A DNA stretch of 64,000 nucleotides from an uncultured virus (IMG/VR IMGVR_UViG_3300032676_000720) (IMGVR_UViG_3300032676_000720); one strand, 5' to 3'. Numbered from the stretch's first letter, positions 40,170-59,204 are shown. Made by a program: numbers and translations. The notes: generated by a model not told the origin, from the sequence alone.

Positions 40170-40503
40170 TATTTTCTGTTTCGACGGATAACTCCGCAAA
40201 GCAGTGATTAAACTGCTAATGTTTGGCGTTGTGCTGTACGAGCAGAGAAACGAATTCCCTTACCTGAAACAGTTACTTCGCCTTTAGATGCGTTTGCATT
40301 TAAGTTTTTCGCTTGATTTACAGTCATCGCCTACTGTGTTGCCTCTTTCATTATCTCACCATGTCGAAACCTTGTCATCCCCACTGAAACATACTACAGC
40401 TTTTGGCCTCGCTACCGATAACTCGGTTCGGTAATATGCTTCGGTGGAGATGCCGGGAATCGAACCCGGGTCCACAGCGCCTTCACTACGAAGGAATTAC
40501 AAC
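40170..40503 (-). ncRNA. ssrA: Circularly permuted (two-piece) tmRNA; outer ends approximate
   Basis: T-arm/acceptor GGACCCGGGTTCGATTCCCGGCATCTCCACC precedes GGGGATGA...TTCGAC (40382); G3:U70; tag frame 40297-40208. Confidence 0.9.
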
Positions 40504-40509
40504 AATTCT

Positions 40510-40713
40510 TTACAGCGGAAGAATATTTGATGCTTGCTTGCCTTTAGGGCCTGCCACTACATCGAATGTTACCGCTTGATTCTCTTTTAAACTCTTAAAA
40601 CCATTTGTGCTAATTGCGGAAAAATGTGCAAACAATTCCTCACCACCAGCATCGGGGGTAATAAATCCAAACCCTTTTGCATCATTAAACCACTTTACTT
40701 TACCTGTTGCCAT
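40510..40713 (-). CDS. cspA: Cold-shock protein
   Basis: [20 protein letters not shown]. Confidence 0.95.
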
Positions 40714-41480: not shown

Positions 41481-41768
41481 TCAAGGATATACTTTTTCGC
41501 CTTGCTTGAGTAACACTACGCTAAACTTATCAGTTTTGAATTGTGTGTTGAGTTTTTTGGCAAGATTGATTGCGTGACCTGGATTACTAAAACTTACTTT
41601 TTTATATTTAGGTCCAGGGTACTGAACTAATAAATTAGAAGTTTTAAGATTAACTGGTTTATTATCAAAGTAAACGGCCCATACTCCTTCCGAAGCAAGT
41701 ACTTGCTCGGTTTTGTATGTTTGCTTGTTTGTAAGCTCAGCTAAAATGGTTGGCTTGGGGCGACTCAC
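41481..41768 (-). CDS. Hypothetical protein
   Basis: MSRPKPT, YKKVSFSNPGHA. Confidence 0.7.
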   Translation of the reverse strand: MSRPKPTILAELTNKQTYKTEQVLASEGVWAVYFDNKPVNLKTSNLLVQYPGPKYKKVSFSNPGHAINLAKKLNTQFKTDKFSVVLLKQGEKVYP

Positions 41769-42367
41769 TTAGAATTCCTTTTGAATAGTTCTTTTCGTGC
41801 TTCAGATATTTTTTTACAAGTTTCTGGAGAACGCTTTTTACCTTTGTGGAGCAACGATATTTTTTGTTTGAATTCCTCACTTCGTGGAACCATTATTTGT
41901 TTAGCTCTAGCATCTTTTATTTTTTGTTTTGTTTCGTCACTATGCTTTTTTCCTAACATAGTAGGCGCTTGTTTTGCTCTAGCAGTTCGAATCTTTTCTT
42001 TACTAGACTCTGTATGTCTATAGTTTTTACTATTTTCTCTAATTTTTTGTCTAGTGGACTCTTTTACAGTACCGTAACTACCTCCCATTAATCCATCTTC
42101 GGGTTTAATGTTAGCCCATTCTGCTGACTCGACAATTTTGTTTTCTGTAGAAAATTTTAAAGCGTATTCGACTAATGTTTCTTTATTATCGAATAGCTGA
42201 CACCAAACGGTAGTAACATCTAGACCGTGTTTATTAAGATGTGCCCGCCAGTGTACGCCAGATCCTAAATATTTGTTAGGATCCCGTATAGTTTTTCCAA
42301 AGTATTTTAGACCGGTAGTATTATGTTGCTTAATGTACAACCAGGTAGGTTTAAACGGTTTCGACAT
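41765..42367 (-). CDS. GIY-YIG-like homing endonuclease with NUMOD3 repeats
   Basis: LYIKQH..TGLKYFGKT..YLGSG; HSDETKQKI repeats. Confidence 0.8.
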   Translation of the reverse strand: MSKPFKPTWLYIKQHNTTGLKYFGKTIRDPNKYLGSGVHWRAHLNKHGLDVTTVWCQLFDNKETLVEYALKFSTENKIVESAEWANIKPEDGLMGGSYGTVKESTRQKIRENSKNYRHTESSKEKIRTARAKQAPTMLGKKHSDETKQKIKDARAKQIMVPRSEEFKQKISLLHKGKKRSPETCKKISEARKELFKRNSK

Positions 42368-42405
42368 AGTATATTATTTAGTCATAATATACCTACTTAT
42401 TTCAT

Positions 42406-42618
42406 TTATTTGAACCCACCGCCATCAATTTTAAGTTCAATAACCTGGTCCTGCTGGGGCTTTAATGCGGCTGTTTGTAGGGTTCTAAGTTCAAGTAATA
42501 GCTCGGTTAAGTCCGCGGCCATGCCTTTAGCATCTTTCATTGGCATAACAAAGTCTTTACTACCCCGAGCATCATTACCTCGAACCCGCTCAATAAATTT
42601 TTGTAAGTGTAAGCTCAA
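42406..42618 (-). CDS. Hypothetical protein
   Basis: ORF track; ends DGGGFK. Confidence 0.6.
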   Translation of the reverse strand: MSLHLQKFIERVRGNDARGSKDFVMPMKDAKGMAADLTELLLELRTLQTAALKPQQDQVIELKIDGGGFK

Positions 42619-42989
42619 TGTTCTCTCTTTAAAAAGTTAGCTAGCTTAGGTGGTTCCCATCCCAATGGTTTAAGAATTTTACCATCTTCACGACGGCGTA
42701 CTTTGCCCAGTTGACGGTCAATTTTGGCAAAGTTAGTAGCCATTACCTCACGCCAAGCACCTTCACCATCTGCGCCCATCGAATTGATTGCTCCGATAGT
42801 AACGACAATAATATCGATTAAAGCATCAAGAGTTTCAACTTGATTTTTATTAGCAATAGCTACTTGTAGCTCGTCGTATTCTTCTGTAATCAATTTGGAG
42901 TAAAGTCTAAACTGATCATCATTCATGCCTGAGATAGTCTGCTCGCAAGCTGTCATAAATTTTGCTGAATCCTTAAACGGGTTTGTCAT
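42615..42989 (-). CDS. MazG-like nucleotide pyrophosphohydrolase
   Basis: EEYDE, DALID, REDGKILKP. Confidence 0.85.
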   Translation of the reverse strand: MTNPFKDSAKFMTACEQTISGMNDDQFRLYSKLITEEYDELQVAIANKNQVETLDALIDIIVVTIGAINSMGADGEGAWREVMATNFAKIDRQLGKVRRREDGKILKPLGWEPPKLANFLKREH

Positions 42990-43606
42990 ACTTTTTCCTT
43001 TTTCTTTAATTGTGCGTTGCGTCTTGCTTCGGACCAAGGCTTACCTTTATGCTGTGATCCATAAATCTTTTTTCTCTCTTCTTCTGTAAGAGAACTTCTA
43101 TGTTGTAATGCCTTTTCTTGCATCACTACTTTTGTATCTTCTGAATGTTCTTTATCTCTAAACGGATTATTTTCCTTCATCCATTCTCTGTGTTTTTCTT
43201 TTCTTCTCTTTGCTTCTTCTTTATCCTGTTGTATCTCTTCGTAAGTCTTGCCTTTGTTTTTACCTGGCTTACCTCTGCTGGCATTGCCTATTTTAGTTTT
43301 TGCTTCTTCGGTATGACTAAACGGACCACCATCGCCTGCTTCTGGTTTTAAGTTAGCCCACTCTGGACTATCTACTACCTGCCATAAGTCACTGTAGTAC
43401 AGGCCCCAGGCTCTTATTTCTTCATTATCTTTACACTCTTTTAATATTTCTGTATCAACATCATTGCCGTGTTTCTCGATATGAGCTGACCAACGCTTAC
43501 CAGAACCTTTGTAAGTGTACGGATCTTGATTAGTCTTACCTAAATATTTTAATCCGGTTTTACGATGAGTTTTAATGTACAAGTAAATCATATTGTACTT
43601 AGTCAT
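42986..43606 (-). CDS. GIY-YIG-like homing endonuclease
   Basis: LYIKTHRKTGLKYLGKT..YKGSG; WANLKPE. Confidence 0.8.
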   Translation of the reverse strand: MTKYNMIYLYIKTHRKTGLKYLGKTNQDPYTYKGSGKRWSAHIEKHGNDVDTEILKECKDNEEIRAWGLYYSDLWQVVDSPEWANLKPEAGDGGPFSHTEEAKTKIGNASRGKPGKNKGKTYEEIQQDKEEAKRRKEKHREWMKENNPFRDKEHSEDTKVVMQEKALQHRSSLTEEERKKIYGSQHKGKPWSEARRNAQLKKKEKV

Positions 43607-43796
43607 CGTAAAGGGTTAGTCATTTATTTCTCTTGTATCTTTTTCACTTCTATACAAGCCCATCCCGATGCTGATTTAACAAGTACTCCATCATTCATTT
43701 CGCATTGGTTAGCTCTTTGTATTTGCTGATAAATCAAAAAAGGAACGGATAACAATATCAATAAAAGTATTGGCGGCCAAATTTTTTCAATTAAAT

Positions 43797-44246
43797 TCAT
43801 TTAGGTAGTGCCTCTTCTTTAGTTTGAAATGGACCCTCGTAAGGGTAGCGTTGTAATACAATTAATTTAGGATCTTGCATAGCCGCCCAATGACGACCTT
43901 TCTTGACTGTGTACCAACCAGCCGCATACCAAGATTTACTTTTCTTTGTTTTAGTGTAAACTGGTAGCTTTTGTGGAACGTCCCACATAGGATTATATAC
44001 ACGACCTGCTGCCGGAAAGCCATGTACTATATTGGTTGTTTTCTTTTTCTCAGGTTTAATAATAGCTTCAAAAGTAACATTGATATTTCGTTCAACTAAT
44101 TTAATACTTTTGTATTGTGCTACTACTTGATTATTAATCTTAACTTGATAGCCGCCATCGCAGGCTTCAATGTTCCCTACTTTATTATTATTTTCTTGTA
44201 AAATCCAAAACTGTTTATCTATTACGGGTTTAGCTACTAGACTCAT
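43797..44246 (-). CDS. Hypothetical protein
   Basis: YTKTKKSKSWYAAGWY, YPYEGPF. Confidence 0.7.
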   Translation of the reverse strand: MSLVAKPVIDKQFWILQENNNKVGNIEACDGGYQVKINNQVVAQYKSIKLVERNINVTFEAIIKPEKKKTTNIVHGFPAAGRVYNPMWDVPQKLPVYTKTKKSKSWYAAGWYTVKKGRHWAAMQDPKLIVLQRYPYEGPFQTKEEALPK

Positions 44247-44425
44247 TTAGTCATCCTTTTTCTACATTGTTCTTTTACTGCTACAGGATAGTCGGGACTA
44301 ATCTCTGCGATACCACAATCATACTTTACTGTTACATGGCGTACATCTGCGGGCCAAAATGCTAAGGCTAATATAGTTAACAATACAGCAAATGTTACCG
44401 TAGTCCAAAACATATCTTTAGCCAT
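44243..44425 (-). CDS. Small membrane protein
   Basis: TM plus YDC..EISPDYP...C. Confidence 0.55.
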   Translation of the reverse strand: MAKDMFWTTVTFAVLLTILALAFWPADVRHVTVKYDCGIAEISPDYPVAVKEQCRKRMTK

Positions 44426-44426
44426 A

Positions 44427-44639
44427 TTATTCTTCAACTCCAAAATGTTCTTTAATTACTCTGCCTACACCTAGAGTAATACCTTCGGCTTCTGAATTAT
44501 GGTCATTGGCAACTTCGGCACATTCCTGAACAATCAACTCGGCGAACTTGGCTAAATCGTCGTGCGACATATTGCCATCGCTTAGATTATTATCAGTGAT
44601 ACCAGCCTGTTCAGCAAGTTGTTTAATCTTCTCGTTCAT
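44427..44639 (-). CDS. MNE..FAEL..HFGV family protein, isolated copy
   Basis: MNEKIKQLAEQAG, KFAELIVQEC, HFGVEE. Confidence 0.7.
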   Translation of the reverse strand: MNEKIKQLAEQAGITDNNLSDGNMSHDDLAKFAELIVQECAEVANDHNSEAEGITLGVGRVIKEHFGVEE

Positions 44640-44812
44640 TGCTTTAATTCCCAAATTTAATTGTATGCTACTATTGTAACAGAATTTAACCATACGGTCA
44701 ACTATTTTGGTAACCTAATAAAATTAACGAAAGATAAATATGAACTAAATAAGTGTAGTTCGCGATCCTGGCAGATCCAACTACTCTAACAGTTAAAAAG
44801 GAACTATTAGCA

Positions 44813-45553
44813 ATGACTATTTACACGCTTTACATTAAGACGCATAAGAAAACAGGACTAAAATATTTAGGTCAAACTCATTACGATCCCTATGAATACA
44901 AAGGTTCGGGGATTGATTGGAAAAAACATATTAAACAGTATGGAGACGATATTACTACTCAAGTTATTTATTCCGGAAAAAATCGTAATGAAATGTCGTC
45001 CTTGGGCAGATATTACAGCAACCTATACCGCATTACAACTTCTGTGGATGATTTTGGCAACAGAATTTGGGCTAACAGAACTATAGAAAACGGTGGAGGC
45101 GGATGGAACATAGGTAAAACATACTCTACAGAAGAACGAAAAAAGTTTGGGCATACTAAGCATAAGGGTTCTAAACGAACAGATAAACAAAAACAAAAAA
45201 TGAAGGATAATCACGCAGATTTTTCTGGTAGCAATAATCCTAACTATGGCAAAAAAGCAAAAGATTCAACACTTACAAAAATGAGAGTCTCAAAAGTAAG
45301 AGTATGTCGCATAGTTGATCGCAAAGAAATGTCTGTAAACGAACTTACTGGCTGGATTAAGCGAGGCTGTAATCTAAAAGACAACTATCGACATGATCCT
45401 ACTATCTATTCATTTACTAACCTAATAACTAACGAAACTATTACTGCTACTAAACGAGAAATGATTGAACGATACAATCTAGATCAAAGTGCTATGAGTA
45501 GAGTATTAACCAGAAAGTTAAAATCTACTAAGGGATGGTCTTTAACTTTGTAG
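44813..45553 (+). CDS. GIY-YIG-like homing endonuclease, opposite strand
   Basis: LYIKTHKKTGLKYLGQT..YKGSG; NNPNYGK. Confidence 0.8.
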   Translation: MTIYTLYIKTHKKTGLKYLGQTHYDPYEYKGSGIDWKKHIKQYGDDITTQVIYSGKNRNEMSSLGRYYSNLYRITTSVDDFGNRIWANRTIENGGGGWNIGKTYSTEERKKFGHTKHKGSKRTDKQKQKMKDNHADFSGSNNPNYGKKAKDSTLTKMRVSKVRVCRIVDRKEMSVNELTGWIKRGCNLKDNYRHDPTIYSFTNLITNETITATKREMIERYNLDQSAMSRVLTRKLKSTKGWSLTL

Positions 45554-51025: not shown

Positions 51026-51919
51026 TTACGATAAAATTTGGCGAATACCTTCTTCAAACGACATAGGATTATAGTCAGGCATAATCGAACGAAGTTTGGT
51101 AATATCAGGACGGCGATTAGCAACAGAACCTGGCATACTTGGTAACTGTTCAAATACTGCGTCTGGATGACCTAATTCGGTAGCAATAACTTTAACAGCA
51201 TCACCAATTGAAATCTCGCGGTCATTGCCCACATTAACCAATTCACGAGTAGTGTTTTCGGCAACATAGATACTAGCACGGATAGCATCTGATACATGAC
51301 AGAAGCTACGAGTTTCTTGTGCGCCGATTACAGAGAAAATACCGTTTTTAATCTTGTTAATTTGGTCACCTAAGAAATGACCTTGTTTACTGTTTTCACC
51401 ATATACATTAAAGTAACGGATCATAACATAAGGTAAGTCCGAATTAGCCAAATAGTTTTCACTAGTAATCTTAGCCAAACGATAACTCCAACGAGCATTG
51501 TGTATATCTTTAATAAACACATCTGAATTCTCTGGAACTGGACTCGTAGGATCATCTGCTACAATTTCACTGCTCGAAGCATATACTAAGCTCTTAAGAT
51601 TAGTACATTTACGAGCAAAATTGAAAATGTTTAAATCGCAAACAAAGTTATTTTCTAATACCTTGTTAGGCATTTTGTAAAAGTTAGTTGTACCGTTAAT
51701 AGCACCATAGTGATAAATGTAATCAAAATCAGTTGGCAATAATTCATCAAACAATACTGTGTTATTTAAGTCAGCGGCAACAAACTTATCACAATCAGGA
51801 ATACTTGAACTACGACTATGATTATCTAGTGCCCATACTTCATTGCCAGCGGCTTTAAGTTGTTTACAAAATTCTGTGCCTAGCAATCCGCTAGCGCCTG
51901 TAATTAAAATTTTAGCCAT
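51026..51919 (-). CDS. NAD-dependent epimerase/decarboxylase
   Basis: ITGASGLLG, ASSSE, YRLAK, TRSFCHV. Confidence 0.9.
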   Translation of the reverse strand: MAKILITGASGLLGTEFCKQLKAAGNEVWALDNHSRSSSIPDCDKFVAADLNNTVLFDELLPTDFDYIYHYGAINGTTNFYKMPNKVLENNFVCDLNIFNFARKCTNLKSLVYASSSEIVADDPTSPVPENSDVFIKDIHNARWSYRLAKITSENYLANSDLPYVMIRYFNVYGENSKQGHFLGDQINKIKNGIFSVIGAQETRSFCHVSDAIRASIYVAENTTRELVNVGNDREISIGDAVKVIATELGHPDAVFEQLPSMPGSVANRRPDITKLRSIMPDYNPMSFEEGIRQILS

Positions 51920-52688
51920 TTACAATTTTCTCATTATCTTTAATAGTTGCTTCAATCATAGCGAAGTCAAGTCCTAAGTTCTTAACTAAGTTAGCCCACG
52001 CACTTGTATCTTTTGGCAAGCAATGTCCGCCAAAGCCACGCAAGTTTTCATTACACATCAAATATGCTGGATTAATACAATCACGCTTGGTAATAGCATT
52101 GTAAACATTATTATAATCTGCGCCTAATGCTTTACATACTTCATAAGCAATATTAGCAAAAATAATTTGTACAGAATGATTTACATTGTTGAAGTATTTG
52201 ATAACTTCTGCTTCTGCTGGCTTAACACAAGCAACATTTTGTGGCAAGTTACCATGGATAGCTTTAACAATAATATAATCTTCTTCGCGATTACTGCCAA
52301 TTACTAATAAATCATGATTGTACATAAAATCAGCTAACGCTGTTTTAGCACGAAGAAATTCTGGAACGGAGCAAATACGCAAGTTAGGGTATTGGGCAGA
52401 TAGCTTATCGCAAGTACCAGGAACACAAGTACTTTTAAGTCCTACTAAACCTTTGTAGCCAGCGTCGTTTAATTCGCCAACTACCTTTTCTACAATACTT
52501 GTATCGCAATCACCATTTGGCGCTTGGTTAGTAGGAACACAAATGAATACACATTCTGTATCTAATACATCATTAAGTGTTGATCCTTCGTATGCTGGAT
52601 CAAAGAAACTCATTTGGTGACCCAAATGATTTAATCCTTCATAAACTGCTTTGCCTACTGTGCCTTTTCCTATTAAACCAATCTTCAT
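51912..52688 (-). CDS. UDP-glucose/GDP-mannose 6-dehydrogenase family
   Basis: GKGTVG, CVPT, PEFLR, GFGGHCLPKD. Confidence 0.9.
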   Translation of the reverse strand: MKIGLIGKGTVGKAVYEGLNHLGHQMSFFDPAYEGSTLNDVLDTECVFICVPTNQAPNGDCDTSIVEKVVGELNDAGYKGLVGLKSTCVPGTCDKLSAQYPNLRICSVPEFLRAKTALADFMYNHDLLVIGSNREEDYIIVKAIHGNLPQNVACVKPAEAEVIKYFNNVNHSVQIIFANIAYEVCKALGADYNNVYNAITKRDCINPAYLMCNENLRGFGGHCLPKDTSAWANLVKNLGLDFAMIEATIKDNEKIVNG

Positions 52689-53285
52689 TCAATTCTCCTC
52701 TGGATATTTCATATCAACTAGTTGATTACTCTGAGCTGACGCCATGCTTAATATTTCTTGTGCCACATCTTCGGGTTCTAAACATATAGCCGAAGTTTTC
52801 ATATCTATCATTTTAGTGCGTGTGCGTACTGGATTAATTAATCCTAATGTAACTTCACTGCCTTTAAAATACTCACAGGCACCTTGCCATACATTATATA
52901 GTGCTGCTTTACTGGCGGCGTATAAAATGTAGTCTTTGCGTCCTGACTTATACGCACTAGATCCAACCATAATAATCTTTACAGGTTTCTTAGTACCGTT
53001 ACTAATGTAATGACGAATAATGGACCAATTCGATCCAATGTTTATATCAAATGTATTTGAATGTGTTTCGTTATTAGTTTTATCGAAATGACCTACACAA
53101 TTTACAATAACATCTGGATCATTACTTGATAACATTTCTTGTATTTTAATATCGCTATCTAAATAAACAAAATTTACTTGATTTTTGCTAATAGGTTTGA
53201 CAATATAGCCGGCTCGAGTGAAGGCTTCACAGGTAGCTTGACCGATGCCGCCATTAGATCCAAATATAACTGCTCGTTTAATCAT
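52689..53285 (-). CDS. SDR oxidoreductase
   Basis: GSNGGIG, YAASK. Confidence 0.85.
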   Translation of the reverse strand: MIKRAVIFGSNGGIGQATCEAFTRAGYIVKPISKNQVNFVYLDSDIKIQEMLSSNDPDVIVNCVGHFDKTNNETHSNTFDINIGSNWSIIRHYISNGTKKPVKIIMVGSSAYKSGRKDYILYAASKAALYNVWQGACEYFKGSEVTLGLINPVRTRTKMIDMKTSAICLEPEDVAQEILSMASAQSNQLVDMKYPEEN

Positions 53286-53691
53286 GTTTTGGTAAAATAG
53301 AATCTACACGGAATGTATCATTCTCGTAATCTTCGCCACCGCGTGGGCCTTCAGCAAAAGCAATAAACACACAGCCATCGCTACCAGCTTCCATACCGTG
53401 GATCTCATTAGGTTCGCTAATAACCATATCCCCAGGACCGGCAGTGATTCCAACGGCTGGCTCATCACTATCAACAGGCTTAGAGTAATAGTGTAAAGTA
53501 CCAGCTAACACATAGGTATACTGCGTAGTAAGTTTGTGATAATGATTAGCACGAATAGCACCAGGAGCGTTAGTAATAATACAAGCATGATTCATATTTG
53601 CTTTGTAAAAAATATCGGTAATCGAACCACGGTCGTCTGCGTGTTTGCCTAAACCTTCTTCTGTATTGTTATAAATGTTGTAATGTCTCAT
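53278..53691 (-). CDS. Cupin, NDP-sugar epimerase/isomerase-like
   Basis: DDRG, RANHYH, EIH. Confidence 0.75.
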   Translation of the reverse strand: MRHYNIYNNTEEGLGKHADDRGSITDIFYKANMNHACIITNAPGAIRANHYHKLTTQYTYVLAGTLHYYSKPVDSDEPAVGITAGPGDMVISEPNEIHGMEAGSDGCVFIAFAEGPRGGEDYENDTFRVDSILPKHD

Positions 53692-54917
53692 TGTGATATA
53701 AACCTTGTGTTAGGGTTGATGCTTAATAGAGCTTTCTTTAGTGGCTCTCCGATATTCCAGCTTAGTACTAATGCGTATGGTTTTTCGTGTTTAGCAAACT
53801 CGTCATCGCTACGAATAGGAATACGAGTTAATGGTGTGTATTTGCCTTGTTTAAATTGACTAGCATCTGTAATACAAGTTAATACTGTTTTATCTAGTTT
53901 GTGCCAGTTTAACCAAGTATTAGCTTTGGCTGCCGCCCCAACACCAATAATAACAGCATCAGGTTCATCTGCTAAAATTTGATAAAAGTTAAGTAGCCAC
54001 GCATTGCGTTGCTTTTCAAACTTGTCTTGTAATTTGGTATAGAAAGTAGTATCAAACAAACCCATAGCAGTTTCGTTTTCGATAGCACCACGAACCAAGA
54101 ATGGCATTCCGTTGTTAGTAGTATGTTTAGCAATAACTCTAATACTGCCGCCATGATAATCAACTATATCAAAATCTACAATATCTAAACCAACTTGCTG
54201 TAGCAAGTTCCAAGCACTCTTAATAGTAAAGTAAGAAATGTGTTCGTGATAAACCATATCTACGAATCGACCACTTTCAATCATACTTGCCCAGTACGGT
54301 AACTCAAATACAAATATACCATCTTTATCTAATAACTGTGAAACTCCCGAAGCAAAGTTAACAGGATCGTTAGCATGATTGAATACATTGTTAGCTATAA
54401 TTACCGAAGCCTTGCCATGTTCTTCGGCAACTTCAACTGCTGTATCAATATTGAATAAAGCAGCTAATGAGTCGACTCCTTTTTCTTTGGCAATATCGCA
54501 CATAGTTTGGGAAGAATCGATCCCAAGTACTTTGGTATCTGTATCTTGAAATTGTTTAATTAAGTAAGCATCGTTACTACCAATCTCTACAACCAATCCC
54601 TCAGTGTTGTATTTGCTTTTGATAGTAGAAGCATATTCATCCCAGTGATCTCTGGCAGTTTTTGAATTTGACGATGTATAGCTATAACTGTATAAGTTAT
54701 AACGATCTTCGGCATCGCTAACGAATCCTAATTGGATTTGCCCTGAACTAGAATTTAAATGTAGTTGTAGTGGAAATACTGGTTCAGACATATGAAGCTG
54801 ATCTTCAGCAATGAATGTATCAGCATAAGCGTGTTGCCCGAAGTCTAAAATTTTTGTAACAAACTCGCCTGTAATTAAACAGCGATCTAAGTGGGTGCTT
54901 TCAGTTATTTTACTCAT
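53688..54917 (-). CDS. NDP-hexose C-methyltransferase family
   Basis: EIGSND, ANNVFNH, YHEHISYF, HGGSIR, GAAAK. Confidence 0.85.
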   Translation of the reverse strand: MSKITESTHLDRCLITGEFVTKILDFGQHAYADTFIAEDQLHMSEPVFPLQLHLNSSSGQIQLGFVSDAEDRYNLYSYSYTSSNSKTARDHWDEYASTIKSKYNTEGLVVEIGSNDAYLIKQFQDTDTKVLGIDSSQTMCDIAKEKGVDSLAALFNIDTAVEVAEEHGKASVIIANNVFNHANDPVNFASGVSQLLDKDGIFVFELPYWASMIESGRFVDMVYHEHISYFTIKSAWNLLQQVGLDIVDFDIVDYHGGSIRVIAKHTTNNGMPFLVRGAIENETAMGLFDTTFYTKLQDKFEKQRNAWLLNFYQILADEPDAVIIGVGAAAKANTWLNWHKLDKTVLTCITDASQFKQGKYTPLTRIPIRSDDEFAKHEKPYALVLSWNIGEPLKKALLSINPNTRFISQ

Positions 54918-55744
54918 TATCTTTTTACCGGAGTTTGTATCATTTGTTTATTAATATCATTCTTTTTAAGTTTTTCCCAAGGATCCTGTTGACCTAGTTT
55001 TACATTTTGCCAGAAAGAAAGGTCTTTACCTTTTGACACTAGATAAGAAGCAATCTTTTCAGCGTCAACTAATCTGCCATTGCCATATGAAGGATGATGG
55101 AAATCTTTTGGACTACTAGGATTACCTTCTAATACCTCACGATTTTTAAATGTAAGGTCTGCGTTGCTACCAGTTAAGTCATGTCTATCGTGTGTAGCGT
55201 AAATTTCTACAATTTCCATAATGTCAAGCATATAAGCAATTTGACTTAACTCAGCATCAATCATTTGATGACGTGAGAAGAATCCAAATAAGTCATACCA
55301 TTCTTTAGGAACAATAGGGAAAATAGAATATGGATGTTCGCGATGAACATGGATTTTAAGTAGTTTGAATTCACCAGTATGATCAGTGATAATTTTATCC
55401 CAACCTGTAGTTTCCATCAAAGCATCGTCATTCCAAACAAACAACCAATCAGCTGATGCTTGTGCGGCTAAGCCATTATAGTAACGATTTAATCCAACAT
55501 AACCCATTGGTTCAAATACCATTACAGTATAATGAATTCCTTTTTGTTCCATCCAAGGCTGGATTGATTCGGAAAAATATTTTAATCCAACTTCATCATC
55601 ATTATCAAATGCTAATAATAATTGGACCCCGTCAATATCAAGTACTCTGTTAAAAACACTAATAATACTTAATTTTAATGCTGTAGTTCTGCCTCTTGTA
55701 GGAAGCATTACCGCTATTTTATAATCGTTTTTGGACTGGGCCAT
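54917..55744 (-). CDS. GT2-like glycosyltransferase
   Basis: LPTRGR, FDNDD, WNDD. Confidence 0.75.
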   Translation of the reverse strand: MAQSKNDYKIAVMLPTRGRTTALKLSIISVFNRVLDIDGVQLLLAFDNDDEVGLKYFSESIQPWMEQKGIHYTVMVFEPMGYVGLNRYYNGLAAQASADWLFVWNDDALMETTGWDKIITDHTGEFKLLKIHVHREHPYSIFPIVPKEWYDLFGFFSRHQMIDAELSQIAYMLDIMEIVEIYATHDRHDLTGSNADLTFKNREVLEGNPSSPKDFHHPSYGNGRLVDAEKIASYLVSKGKDLSFWQNVKLGQQDPWEKLKKNDINKQMIQTPVKR

Positions 55745-56088: not shown

Positions 56089-56572
56089 TCCATTCCCTGT
56101 GTCCTTCGCGATACGCCATGTTAGACATTGTTTCGCGAACTTCTACACGATAGCACCATAAGCGGTCAGCTTCGGATTGTCCCCACATATCAGGTATGTA
56201 AACTCCGTTAACATATTTGTAAAGTTGATCAGCTAGGCCTTCACAACCTAATTTAGGAAGAATGGTTAGTTTAGCAAGATTGCGTTTTTCCATTTCTTTA
56301 TAAAAGTCAAGTTCCGGATCATCTTCTGCTACTAACAATGTATGGTCAAACTGTGACTCTAATACCGATTTCAATTCTTTAAGTCCACCGTAATCGGCTG
56401 CCCAGTTGCGTACATCTAAATCATTTGTACCAAAATAAAACTTCATACTAAATGAATAGCCATGAATTAAATTACAATGACTATCAGCTCTCCATTGACG
56501 ATAAGCGCAAGGAAATGCGTCATGATATTCTTTAGTACTTGTGTATTTGTATTGTATTGCTTGGTTTGCCAT
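56069..56572 (-). CDS. queD: 6-carboxy-tetrahydropterin synthase
   Basis: CNLIHGY, FDHTL, EVRET. Confidence 0.85.
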   Translation of the reverse strand: MANQAIQYKYTSTKEYHDAFPCAYRQWRADSHCNLIHGYSFSMKFYFGTNDLDVRNWAADYGGLKELKSVLESQFDHTLLVAEDDPELDFYKEMEKRNLAKLTILPKLGCEGLADQLYKYVNGVYIPDMWGQSEADRLWCYRVEVRETMSNMAYREGHREWNEDLFA

Positions 56573-56578
56573 TTATTT

Positions 56579-56644
56579 CTCCTATGTTAGATTATAGCAT
56601 AGGCAGCAGAATTTGTATACCGGGATGATGCTCAAAAGACCGGT
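56579..56644 (-). promoter_or_regulatory. Candidate preQ1-I-like riboswitch plus SD-sequestering hairpin
   Basis: ACCGG/CCGGT stem, loop AGCA pairing with downstream TGCT, ATACAAA linker; CCTATG/CATAGG overlaps the SD. Confidence 0.5.
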
Positions 56645-56649
56645 TGAAA

Positions 56650-56826
56650 CTATTTATTATCAGATTCTGGTGTAGCAGCAGGAGCTACTGGCTTTTCGGT
56701 AGTACCCATCTTTTTAGCAAGGTATGGATCAACATATGGTTTGTTAACTGTTTCGTCGGCCACATTCCAACCAATGGCACTAAAGAATCCTACAATTAAC
56801 CAAGTTCCTATAAGTTCAATGATCAT
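56650..56826 (-). CDS. Small membrane protein
   Basis: MIIELIGTWLIVGFFSAIGW. Confidence 0.5.
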   Translation of the reverse strand: MIIELIGTWLIVGFFSAIGWNVADETVNKPYVDPYLAKKMGTTEKPVAPAATPESDNK

Positions 56827-58106: not shown

Positions 58107-58148
58107 ATATGCTTTTATTATAAAGGTTATTTAGGTTTAAGTCAATTA

Positions 58149-59204
58149 CTATGTAATATTTTTTAACAGATTTGTAGCCGAAAAGAAGTTTTCAGAAAGA
58201 TCCTTGGCTTGTTTTTCGATATATGGAATTCGAACATCATATGATTCCATATCTTCTATAATAACCTTACATAAGTCTGGACGATAAACATTATACGCTT
58301 CATAACTTTCAGTCCATATACTAGGATATTTGAAATGATTATAATACATTTCAGTATAACTTAATCGATCCGGAACTAGGGGAATGGCTCCTAGTAATGC
58401 GCCTTCGTAACAGCTAATGCCAAGTGTTTCTTGTAAGTTAGCAGAGAACACAATCTTAGCTTCGCCCAACAATGTGTGATATTCATGTTTAGTAAGTTCT
58501 TGTTCTTGACAAACAACGAATTCATATTGTGGTAAGTGTGTAGCCAAATCTTTAAAAATGTCTACTTGTTTTTCTGGAGCAATACGATGTGGAAATAAGA
58601 TTAAGTCACGCTTTTTTAAATTCTTATAAGGAGCCAGTTCAGCTTCCATATACTCCATGGGCCATCCTGTTTGTGTTACATAAGGATTGGTACCATTATC
58701 TTCTACATCAAATAAGTTTTTAGCAAACATTTTGATATGAAAATCTGTAGCAAAGTAGTTGTGGTCGTATGAAAAGAAATAACTCTTTTCAGCGTGACGC
58801 ACCCATGGCTTATCTCCAACTAAGCGTCCAAGAAAGTCTTGAGGATCATAACTGCCAGCATGCCATAAGCCATGTGTGGTTACAGGAATCTGTAACAACT
58901 CGCTCATGTATTTTAAGTTTATGATGCCAGGATGCCAAGCATCAGTAAAAATGAAATGATCACCAGGATTAACTGCTCCGGAGCAAAATAAACGGCCCAT
59001 CTGCTCAACTTGATTAGCCTTGTATATATTGGTGCCACCAAAATTAAGAAAAGCACCAGGAGTAGTGGCTTTAGGAATATCCTCAGGGCCAGCGATAATT
59101 TGAACATCGTGTCCTCTCTTTCTAAGAAGGTTAGGTAAGTGAGTTTTCCACTCGCAGGTATAACGAGTGGAAACACTTTCTAGATCGACTAAAAAAACGG
59201 TCAA
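58149..59204 (-). CDS. GT-B fold glycosyltransferase-like protein
   Basis: FPHRIAPEKQ, QETLGISCYEG. Confidence 0.7.
   Translation of the reverse strand: MTVFLVDLESVSTRYTCEWKTHLPNLLRKRGHDVQIIAGPEDIPKATTPGAFLNFGGTNIYKANQVEQMGRLFCSGAVNPGDHFIFTDAWHPGIINLKYMSELLQIPVTTHGLWHAGSYDPQDFLGRLVGDKPWVRHAEKSYFFSYDHNYFATDFHIKMFAKNLFDVEDNGTNPYVTQTGWPMEYMEAELAPYKNLKKRDLILFPHRIAPEKQVDIFKDLATHLPQYEFVVCQEQELTKHEYHTLLGEAKIVFSANLQETLGISCYEGALLGAIPLVPDRLSYTEMYYNHFKYPSIWTESYEAYNVYRPDLCKVIIEDMESYDVRIPYIEKQAKDLSENFFSATNLLKNIT

Follow-up and report, generated by a model that had tools for sequence, protein, structure and literature searches.

Class I preQ1 (preQ1-I) riboswitches are small H-type pseudoknots in which an A-rich loop (L3) runs into a P2 helix of 3-4 bp, whose 3' strand overlaps the Shine-Dalgarno (SD) sequence or precedes a terminator. 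As described in PMC11625349, types I-III of this class have a specificity cytosine directly 5' of the P1 3' strand, following U in type I or A in types II and III, and a short L1 that starts with a conserved U (UU in types I and III). The preQ1-II (RF01054) and preQ1-III (RF02680) riboswitches are also pseudoknotted 7-deazaguanine sensors that control translation; according to PMC11625349 they are far larger, with 4-5 helices, and are associated with queT. The leader analysed here precedes a queD-like gene on the minus strand of a 64,000-nucleotide (nt) stretch of DNA from an uncultured virus (IMG/VR IMGVR_UViG_3300032676_000720), hereafter called the window. The leader forms an H-type pseudoknot of ~45 nt with the helices P1 and P2 and, judging from sequence comparisons, is probably the sensor domain of an uncatalogued riboswitch class. 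More tentatively, this would be a phage-only class built on a preQ1-I-like knot with an enlarged junction, in which a guanine-like or pterin-like metabolite other than preQ1 switches QueD translation on.

Comparison with the preQ1-I riboswitches showed a shared layout of a small H-type pseudoknot with a 5-bp P1 carrying G-C top pairs and a P2 formed by the P1 loop with the 3' tail. A C lies directly 5' of the P1 3' strand, mostly after U as described for type I in PMC11625349. An A-rich stretch directly follows P1, and a gene of the queuosine/7-deazaguanine pathway lies downstream. However, L1 of the queD leaders is 3-9 nt long and begins with N-C and not with U-U, L3 is 10 nt long with an invariant YUC end, and P2 has ~7-8 layers including a U-C mismatch. 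The SD lies ~12-35 nt beyond P2 instead of within it, the wiring predicts an ON switch, and the pathway appears to lack QueC. Among the matches listed, the motif lies on phage contigs only, barring two contigs of a metagenome-assembled genome (MAG). The first-pass annotation of this DNA had described a preQ1-I-like pseudoknot. Its conserved and covarying H-type knot, 5-bp P1, C before the P1 3' strand and A-rich stretch stand, whereas membership of the class does not, as L1, L3 and P2 differ and the Rfam preQ1 models gave no match. At gathering scores, the whole window matched only a transfer-messenger RNA (tmRNA) and 26 tRNAs, with no PreQ1 match (RF00522 gathering score of 39 bits) and none to the models of the two larger classes. 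At E <= 10, the region 56450-56800 gave three unrelated chance matches and no preQ1 family, and RF00522 on five related records gave matches of 9-14 bits, all away from the motif.

Conservation and covariation of the leader pseudoknot

The element is abundant in IMG/VR. A search with the QueD protein, which is independent of the RNA, gave at least 600 QueD-adjacent stretches; the best 80 loci (85-100% protein identity) were used and yielded 38 distinct motif sequences. The element is present in 75 of these 80 leaders. It was not found in L023, L029, L050, L058 and L035, the last of which has 62 nt upstream only and is not judgeable. A pattern scan that left the middle of P1, L1 and P2a free matched at least 120 stretches, from which 80 loci were taken, giving 100 distinct sequences in total, all from uncultured phage contigs. 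Two loose regular-expression matches (L077:1133-1187 and L078:3216-3265) were dropped as false.

In the 100 distinct sequences, 98.1% of the cells are paired compared with 85.4% after shuffling (reached by none of 500 shuffles), and the covariation score is 0.282 vs. 0.044. P1 is paired in 99.4% of the cells, with two-sided changes at three of its five pairs. Pair 6-35 is AU in 93 and UA in 6 sequences, pair 7-34 is GC in 90, CG in 6 and UA in 2, and pair 8-33 is CG in 83, AU in 13 and UA in 4. The remaining two pairs, both G-C, never vary. Single-sequence folding, which is blind to pseudoknots, gave a minimum free energy of -14.4 kcal/mol for the leader vs. -15.16 +/- 3.09 for the shuffles (z of 0.25), no better than chance.

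The variable part of P2 (P2a) joins five bases 5' of a conserved UCA with five bases 3' of a conserved CUGC. With this register fixed, 3.32 of 4 positions pair, compared with a mean of 1.96 +/- 0.125 for shuffled tails (a maximum of 2.28 in 1000) and with 0.89-1.84 for slid registers. At least ten distinct, fully complementary 4-bp versions of P2a occur, including GGCG/CGCC, GGUG/CACC, GACA/UGUC, GGCU/AGCC, GCAU/AUGC and ACAA/UUGU. The fixed-register count was adopted because the GC-rich strands permit several registers. A score based on the longest loop-tail helix had been rejected, showing no separation between the true partners (4.05) and swapped ones (3.79). Since MAFFT shifted the P2 strands, placing a coordinated one-base indel in both of them (alignment A3; column 50 of A2), the full P2 was counted on two indel-free sub-alignments. 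In the sub-alignment A4, which holds the window (n = 49), 89.6% of the cells are paired vs. 82.7% shuffled (0 of 500), with a covariation score of 0.197 vs. 0.073 and 33-57% paired for slid registers. The corresponding values of A5 (n = 51) are 93.3% vs. 84.3% (0 of 500), 0.264 vs. 0.099, and 30-52%. The first-pass annotation had paired AGCA with TGCT across P2. This register, which is possible in the subgroup of the window, corresponds to a slide of -3 in A4 and pairs 57.4% of the cells vs. 89.6% for the family register GAGCA/UGCCU, which lies 3 nt downstream. Covariation among homologous phage queD leaders had been named there as a check on the pseudoknot, and compensatory changes are present in both P1 and P2.

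The bases of the inner part of P2 (P2b) are almost invariant, and IMG/VR was therefore scanned for three possible variants. The double change from C-G to U-A gave 32 pattern matches, 10 of them with a 5-bp P1; nine are true copies (five distinct) and one, without P2, was dropped. The single change to C x A gave 11 matches, of which the one with a 5-bp P1 has neither P2 nor an SD, and the single change to U.G gave 40 matches, none with a 5-bp P1; no true copy was found for either. The nine double-change copies precede different QueD subfamilies. At the level of sequence, these results support an extension of P2 by a C-G pair beyond the U-C mismatch. With the extension, L2 is reduced to YC or YYC, and L3 to 10 nt (WUAYAAAYUC). 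Overall, P2 would consist of 4-5 variable pairs, the conserved U-C mismatch, and the C-G and A-U pairs.

The motif is tied to genes of the queD family, as had been claimed for the window. In 151 of 155 copies, the first downstream open reading frame (ORF) carries the CxxxHG[YH] signature of PTPS/QueD proteins. The remaining four are L054, in which a 45-amino-acid (aa) ORF is directly followed by queD, L095, which has a QueD-like start with no recognisable SD, L150, with a cupin downstream, and L161, whose downstream ORF has no family assignment. In L054 (1263-1500), a 344-kb relative, the knot precedes the 45-aa ORF, which ends 25 nt before queD; this arrangement suggests leader-peptide control or a recently inserted small gene. 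All eight QueD-subfamily representatives scanned match PF01242, with a mutual identity of 28-57%. Most knot-associated proteins of the family have CxxxHGY instead of the canonical CxxxHGH, and among the subfamilies seen only one (L160) has HGH. The genes upstream of the motif vary between loci.

A covariance model, R1, built from the 100 distinct sequences, has one match in the window (56648-56598, 61.6 bits, E of 3.8e-19; the next best has 6.6 bits) and one match in each of four of the five near-complete relatives (52.7-63.8 bits). The fifth, in which queD is fused closely to the upstream gene, has no R1 match. Four cultured phages with a DpdL homolog (ACP17, PA5oct, Phosso and RHph_I1_18) gave nothing above 13.7 bits with R1, and among 50,697 phage records searched by blastn with two leaders, none matched across the knot. 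In the prokaryote genome collection, the 81 pattern matches listed at 80 loci include only two with both P1 and P2, on 5-6-kb contigs of a single Bacteroidetes MAG.

Alternative pairing and transcription signals

Part of the ribosome-binding region is also complementary to the P2 3' strand. In the type a leaders, to which the window belongs (76 of 121 distinct leaders, with a hairpin like CCUAUG/CAUAGG), the CC(U) of the P2a 3' strand is the foot of the SD hairpin, and GGCA or AGCA at the start offers a possible partner for UGCC or UGCU. In the window, CCU 56603-56601 belongs both to the P2 3' strand and to the 5' arm of the SD hairpin, and the UGCC can pair with GGCA 56570-56567. In the 45 distinct leaders that have no such hairpin (types b and c), the P2a 3' strand and the next 3-4 bases pair with the start-codon region, as in UGUCAUUG/CAAUGGCA, UGUCGUC/GAUGGCA and GCCAUC/GAUGGC. 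This helix shows compensatory differences (AUUG/CAAU vs. AUC/GAU; UGUCAU/AUGACA vs. UGCCAU/AUGGCA), and its mean duplex energy is -7.41 kcal/mol vs. -6.48 +/- 0.12 with shuffled partners.

When the knot was barred from other pairing, the predicted accessibility of the SD rose from 0.33 to 0.70, with an increase in 104 of the 121 distinct leaders and a decrease in two. A stricter model blocked the bases only through the fourth P2a pair. In this run, the 45 leaders of types b and c went from 0.36 unpaired in the apo state to 0.58 in the holo state at the SD, and from 0.09 to 0.25 at the AUG. The P2 3' strand can serve either the knot or the ribosome-binding region, so that translation is probably switched on when the knot forms, and the modelling somewhat favours an ON switch for the family as a whole. 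In the ligand-free RNA, the P2 3' strand would pair with the ribosome-binding region, in the window through the SD hairpin CCUAUG/CAUAGG together with UGCC/GGCA by the AUG, and in the other leader types by sequestering the start codon itself. A ligand that locks P2 would deprive the sequestering structure of its partner and allow more translation of QueD. Product feedback that shuts queD off, as first proposed for this leader, does not agree with this wiring, in which the P2 3' strand competes with the helix hiding the ribosome-binding region. The logic is that of the add adenine riboswitch of Vibrio vulnificus, a translational ON switch in which a sensor strand also pairs with the ribosome-binding region and is freed by the ligand. 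The add riboswitch differs in being an unrelated three-way junction purine sensor at a salvage or deaminase gene in a bacterium.

The sequences upstream of P1 carry promoter-like boxes. Of 122 distinct upstream flanks, 96 contain ATAA(A/G)TA, TAAATA or TAAGTA, mostly at a distance of 5-11 nt from P1, and another 24 contain a sigma-70-like promoter (TTG..N16-18..TAnnnT) ending 4-14 nt before P1. Such boxes would fit a transcript that starts at the knot. In the window, the TAAATA box shares bases with the stop codon that ends the small ORF upstream. Farther upstream, at 58117-58145 on the minus strand and before the 132-aa ORF that precedes folE, lies a near-consensus sigma-70 promoter (TTGACT, 17 bp, TATAAT, 11 of 12 matches), which could drive a folE-to-queD transcript through the knot.

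A further promoter-like sequence lies inside the leader. In the type a leaders, L3 and the hairpin loop read TTTACA or TATACA, 17 bp and TG-n-TAnnnT, and the sigma-70-like promoter of the window has 10 of 12 hexamer matches plus the TG. An alternative promoter in the second hairpin had been suspected from the window, and the family bears this out, as the TAnnnT is kept in 24 of 25 distinct hairpin loops at 17 bp from TTTACA/TATACA. The pattern is typical of a -10 element and not of an RNA loop, so the internal promoter is probably real.

Candidate ligands and competing explanations

The window encodes FolE, QueD, QueE-like and DpdL-like proteins, and DpdL-like and QueE-like genes are present in all five near-complete relatives. 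Searches for QueC in four motif-bearing genomes gave either no match or partial N-terminal matches of 13-26 bits. The Pfam TGT model found no DpdA in the five near-complete relatives, and DpdA3 may be too divergent for this model. According to PMC10516641, DpdL is a paralog of QueD and the proposed decarboxylase of 7-carboxy-7-deazaguanine (CDG), and a QueC-less route of FolE, QueD, QueE, DpdL and DpdA3 leads to 2'-deoxy-7-deazaguanine. By its sequence, the 151-aa ORF of the window, with homologs in Acidovorax phage ACP17 and Cellulophaga phages, fits the DpdL of this DNA pathway. With no clear QueC, the phage probably makes neither preQ0 nor preQ1, and preQ0, considered at first as a ligand, is not supported as a product of the phage itself. 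The ligand is likely to be guanine-like or pterin-like and tied to the QueC-less 7-deazaguanine DNA pathway. The candidates are 7-deazaguanine, CDG, which had been considered at the outset and stays possible, dihydroneopterin triphosphate (the substrate of QueD) and guanine, which in the more tentative reading would be the guanine set free from DNA by transglycosylation. As a ligand for an ON switch, an end product would be less fitting than a substrate or a demand signal.

The leader has the general features of a riboswitch, namely a conserved structured leader, one downstream gene family and an alternative pairing at the ribosome-binding site. The nearly invariant unpaired bases are the NC at the start of L1, the YC before the P1 3' strand and the WUAYAAAYUC of L3. 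The first base of L1 is T in 41, C in 38 and A in 21 of the 100 distinct sequences and the second is C in all 100, at positions that the search pattern left free. The base at the position of C 56624 is invariant in the 46 protein-anchored rows and C in 100 of 100, and it follows U in 84, C in 13 and A in 3. These bases may form a binding pocket at the P1/P2 junction, and the junction cytosine would suit any ligand with a guanine-like face.

Several observations weigh against a metabolite sensor of this kind. A protein partner would explain the same conservation. Moreover, 62 of the 100 sequences came from a pattern that fixes 14 bases in L2, the P1 3' strand and L3, so that invariance there arises by construction; the same invariant columns appear independently in the protein-anchored set. 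A pocket resembling that of preQ1-I is not established, with no support from the Rfam models. The pair types alone (23 G.U cells vs. 13 A.C cells) are weak evidence for the strand. The P2a of the window contains an A x C mismatch, so that P2 and the SD hairpin may share as little as 1 nt. In the stricter run, the SD of the 76 type a leaders opens from 0.31 to 0.75 while their AUG closes from 0.46 to 0.17, since UAUGCU, once free, finds a new partner in the start region. For the window alone, blocking the knot raised the SD from 0.43 to 0.58 only, with the AUG at 0.15-0.29, and the modelling leaves the direction for its own leader unclear. Biosynthetic genes are seldom controlled by ON switches. 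Finally, the internal promoter is likely to yield a queD mRNA without the knot.

A less likely alternative to the metabolite sensor is that the knot is real and binds no small molecule, serving either as a protein-binding operator, for example for QueD or a phage regulator, or as a fixed structure that adjusts translation or the stability of the mRNA. A protein site would account just as readily for loops that are conserved and helices that covary, the knot changes the modelled ribosome-binding site of the window only slightly, and Rfam matched no known ligand pocket. However, the element is strictly tied to one enzyme family whose subfamilies share only 28-57% identity, across which an autoregulator would have to keep its RNA-binding surface. 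Metabolite switches typically show just such a small size, invariant junction bases and a competing helix at the ribosome-binding site. Beside the motif, no conserved gene stood out as a candidate regulator, and the upstream genes differ from locus to locus.

It is improbable that the leader is a divergent preQ1-I riboswitch with preQ1 or preQ0 as its ligand, repressing queD through product feedback. The layout is shared, including the 5-bp P1, the C before the P1 3' strand (after U in 84 of 100 sequences), the A-rich stretch and the que gene downstream. Against this, RF00522 has no match at the motif in the window or the five related records at E <= 10, L1 has no conserved U(U) start, and the 10-nt L3 ends in pyrimidines. 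P2, with its ~7-8 layers, leaves the SD outside, ~12-35 nt away, and the alternative pairing predicts ON and not OFF. The genomes have DpdL and no clear QueC, so that preQ0 and preQ1 would not be their products. Least probable is a purely DNA-based conservation, in which a sigma-70-type promoter (TTTACA, 17 bp, TGnTATAAT) is accompanied by the CCTATG/CATAGG inverted repeat as an operator. The window has 10 of 12 hexamer matches plus TG, and 24 of 25 distinct loops have a -10-like TAnnnT at 17 bp. However, 45 of 121 distinct leaders keep the knot with neither such a -10 nor the hairpin, the L3 of those leaders is A-rich and not -35-like (for example ATATAA and TTAAAT), and a promoter leaves the compensatory changes of P1 and P2 unexplained. 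The promoter most likely coexists with the RNA element and does not replace it.

Searches of full-text literature found no description of the element, and no described riboswitch controlling DNA base hypermodification was found. To our knowledge, riboswitches that belong to phages themselves and are not carried over from a host are rare, and a leader acting as proposed here would be the first natural ON switch of the preQ1-I fold that we know of. The ~45-nt element is nearly unchanged while the enzyme encoded downstream falls to 28% identity. Should the element bind a metabolite, the smallest known riboswitch fold would gain a ligand or a new pocket. Giant phages would then time the replacement of guanine in their own DNA by means of an RNA sensor, which would show how they regulate the 7-deazaguanine pathway that protects DNA from restriction, and the element would be a compact part for synthetic biology.

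Features of the window and neighbouring genes

Every string quoted in the first-pass annotation was found on the minus strand, and the positions of the leader parts and the neighbouring genes are given in the table. The P1 strands ACCGG and CCGGT enclose a loop of 16 nt, and the gap between the small ORF and queD is 77 nt.

Table. Parts of the queD leader and neighbouring genes in the window
Feature	Position	Strand	Remarks
DpdL-like 151-aa ORF	59887-59432	minus	LxxxHRH where QueD has CxxxHGH; phrog_17812, E 3.9e-31
132-aa ORF		minus	first in the listed minus-strand order, before folE
folE	57711-56911	minus	GTP_cyclohydroI, E 1.6e-39
Small ORF between folE and queD leader	end at 56650	minus	
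TAAATA box	56656-56651	minus	string found; putative promoter, resembles T4 late promoter
P1 5' strand ACCGG	56644-56640	minus	pairs with CCGGU 56623-56619
L1 UCUUUU	56639-56634	minus	3-9 nt across the family
P2a 5' strand GAGCA	56633-56629	minus	partner UGCCU 56605-56601; A-U, C-G, G-C, A x C mismatch, G.U
AGCA of the first-proposed register	56632-56629	minus	complementary to TGCT 56608-56605
UCA	56628-56626	minus	U 56628 faces C 56606 (conserved mismatch); C 56627-G 56607 and A 56626-U 56608 form P2b
L2 UC	56625-56624	minus	C 56624 directly 5' of P1 3' strand, where preQ1-I has its ligand-pairing cytosine
P1 3' strand CCGGU	56623-56619	minus	
L3 AUACAAAUUC (A-rich tail, DNA ATACAAATTC)	56618-56609	minus	10 nt; A-rich in first 7 nt only; invariant UC at its end (YUC)
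P2 3' strand: UG (P2b), C, UGCCU (P2a)	56608-56601	minus	
Sigma-70-like promoter TATACA, 17 bp, TG-n-TATAAT	56619-56591	minus	overlaps L3, P2 3' strand and hairpin loop; TGCTATAAT, -10 hexamer at 56596-56591
Hairpin CCUAUG/CAUAGG, 11-nt loop	56603-56581 (arms 56603-56598, 56586-56581)	minus	covers AGG of the SD
Shine-Dalgarno AGGAG	56583-56579	minus	6 nt before ATG
ATG of queD	56572	minus	
queD-like gene (regulated gene)	56572-56069	minus	PTPS family, 167 aa, CxxxHGY; PF01242, E 3.2e-13; phrog_2389, E 4.6e-34
MazG-like gene		minus	after queD in minus-strand order
Purine phosphoribosyltransferase-like ORF	51001-50432	minus	
QueE-like radical-SAM ORF	50149-49295	minus	partial matches to several QueE models
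S-adenosylmethionine (SAM) synthetase	49073-47949	minus	full

A minus-strand gene run at 51001-47949 consists of the phosphoribosyltransferase-like ORF, a 101-aa ORF, the QueE-like ORF, an 80-aa ORF and the SAM synthetase. The position of the phosphoribosyltransferase next to QueE could mean that the deazapurine base is also converted to a nucleotide. Sugar-nucleotide enzymes lie among the deazaguanine genes at 51026-55744 and 58149-59204 on the minus strand (an epimerase/dehydratase, a UDP-glucose dehydrogenase-like protein, a short-chain dehydrogenase and a cupin), together with C-methyltransferase and glycosyltransferase-like ORFs in the same intervals. A 351-aa ORF adjoining the DpdL-like gene matches an annotated glycosyltransferase of the phages Phosso and vB_Pa-PAC2.

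The 26 tRNA genes and the tmRNA of the window lie at 19351-41075 on the minus strand. The tmRNA (40239-40545, minus strand) scores 117.6 bits with the beta_tmRNA model and 118.4 bits with the permuted tmRNA model. Directly downstream of this region, at 41765-45553, are ORFs with NUMOD3 homing-endonuclease motifs.

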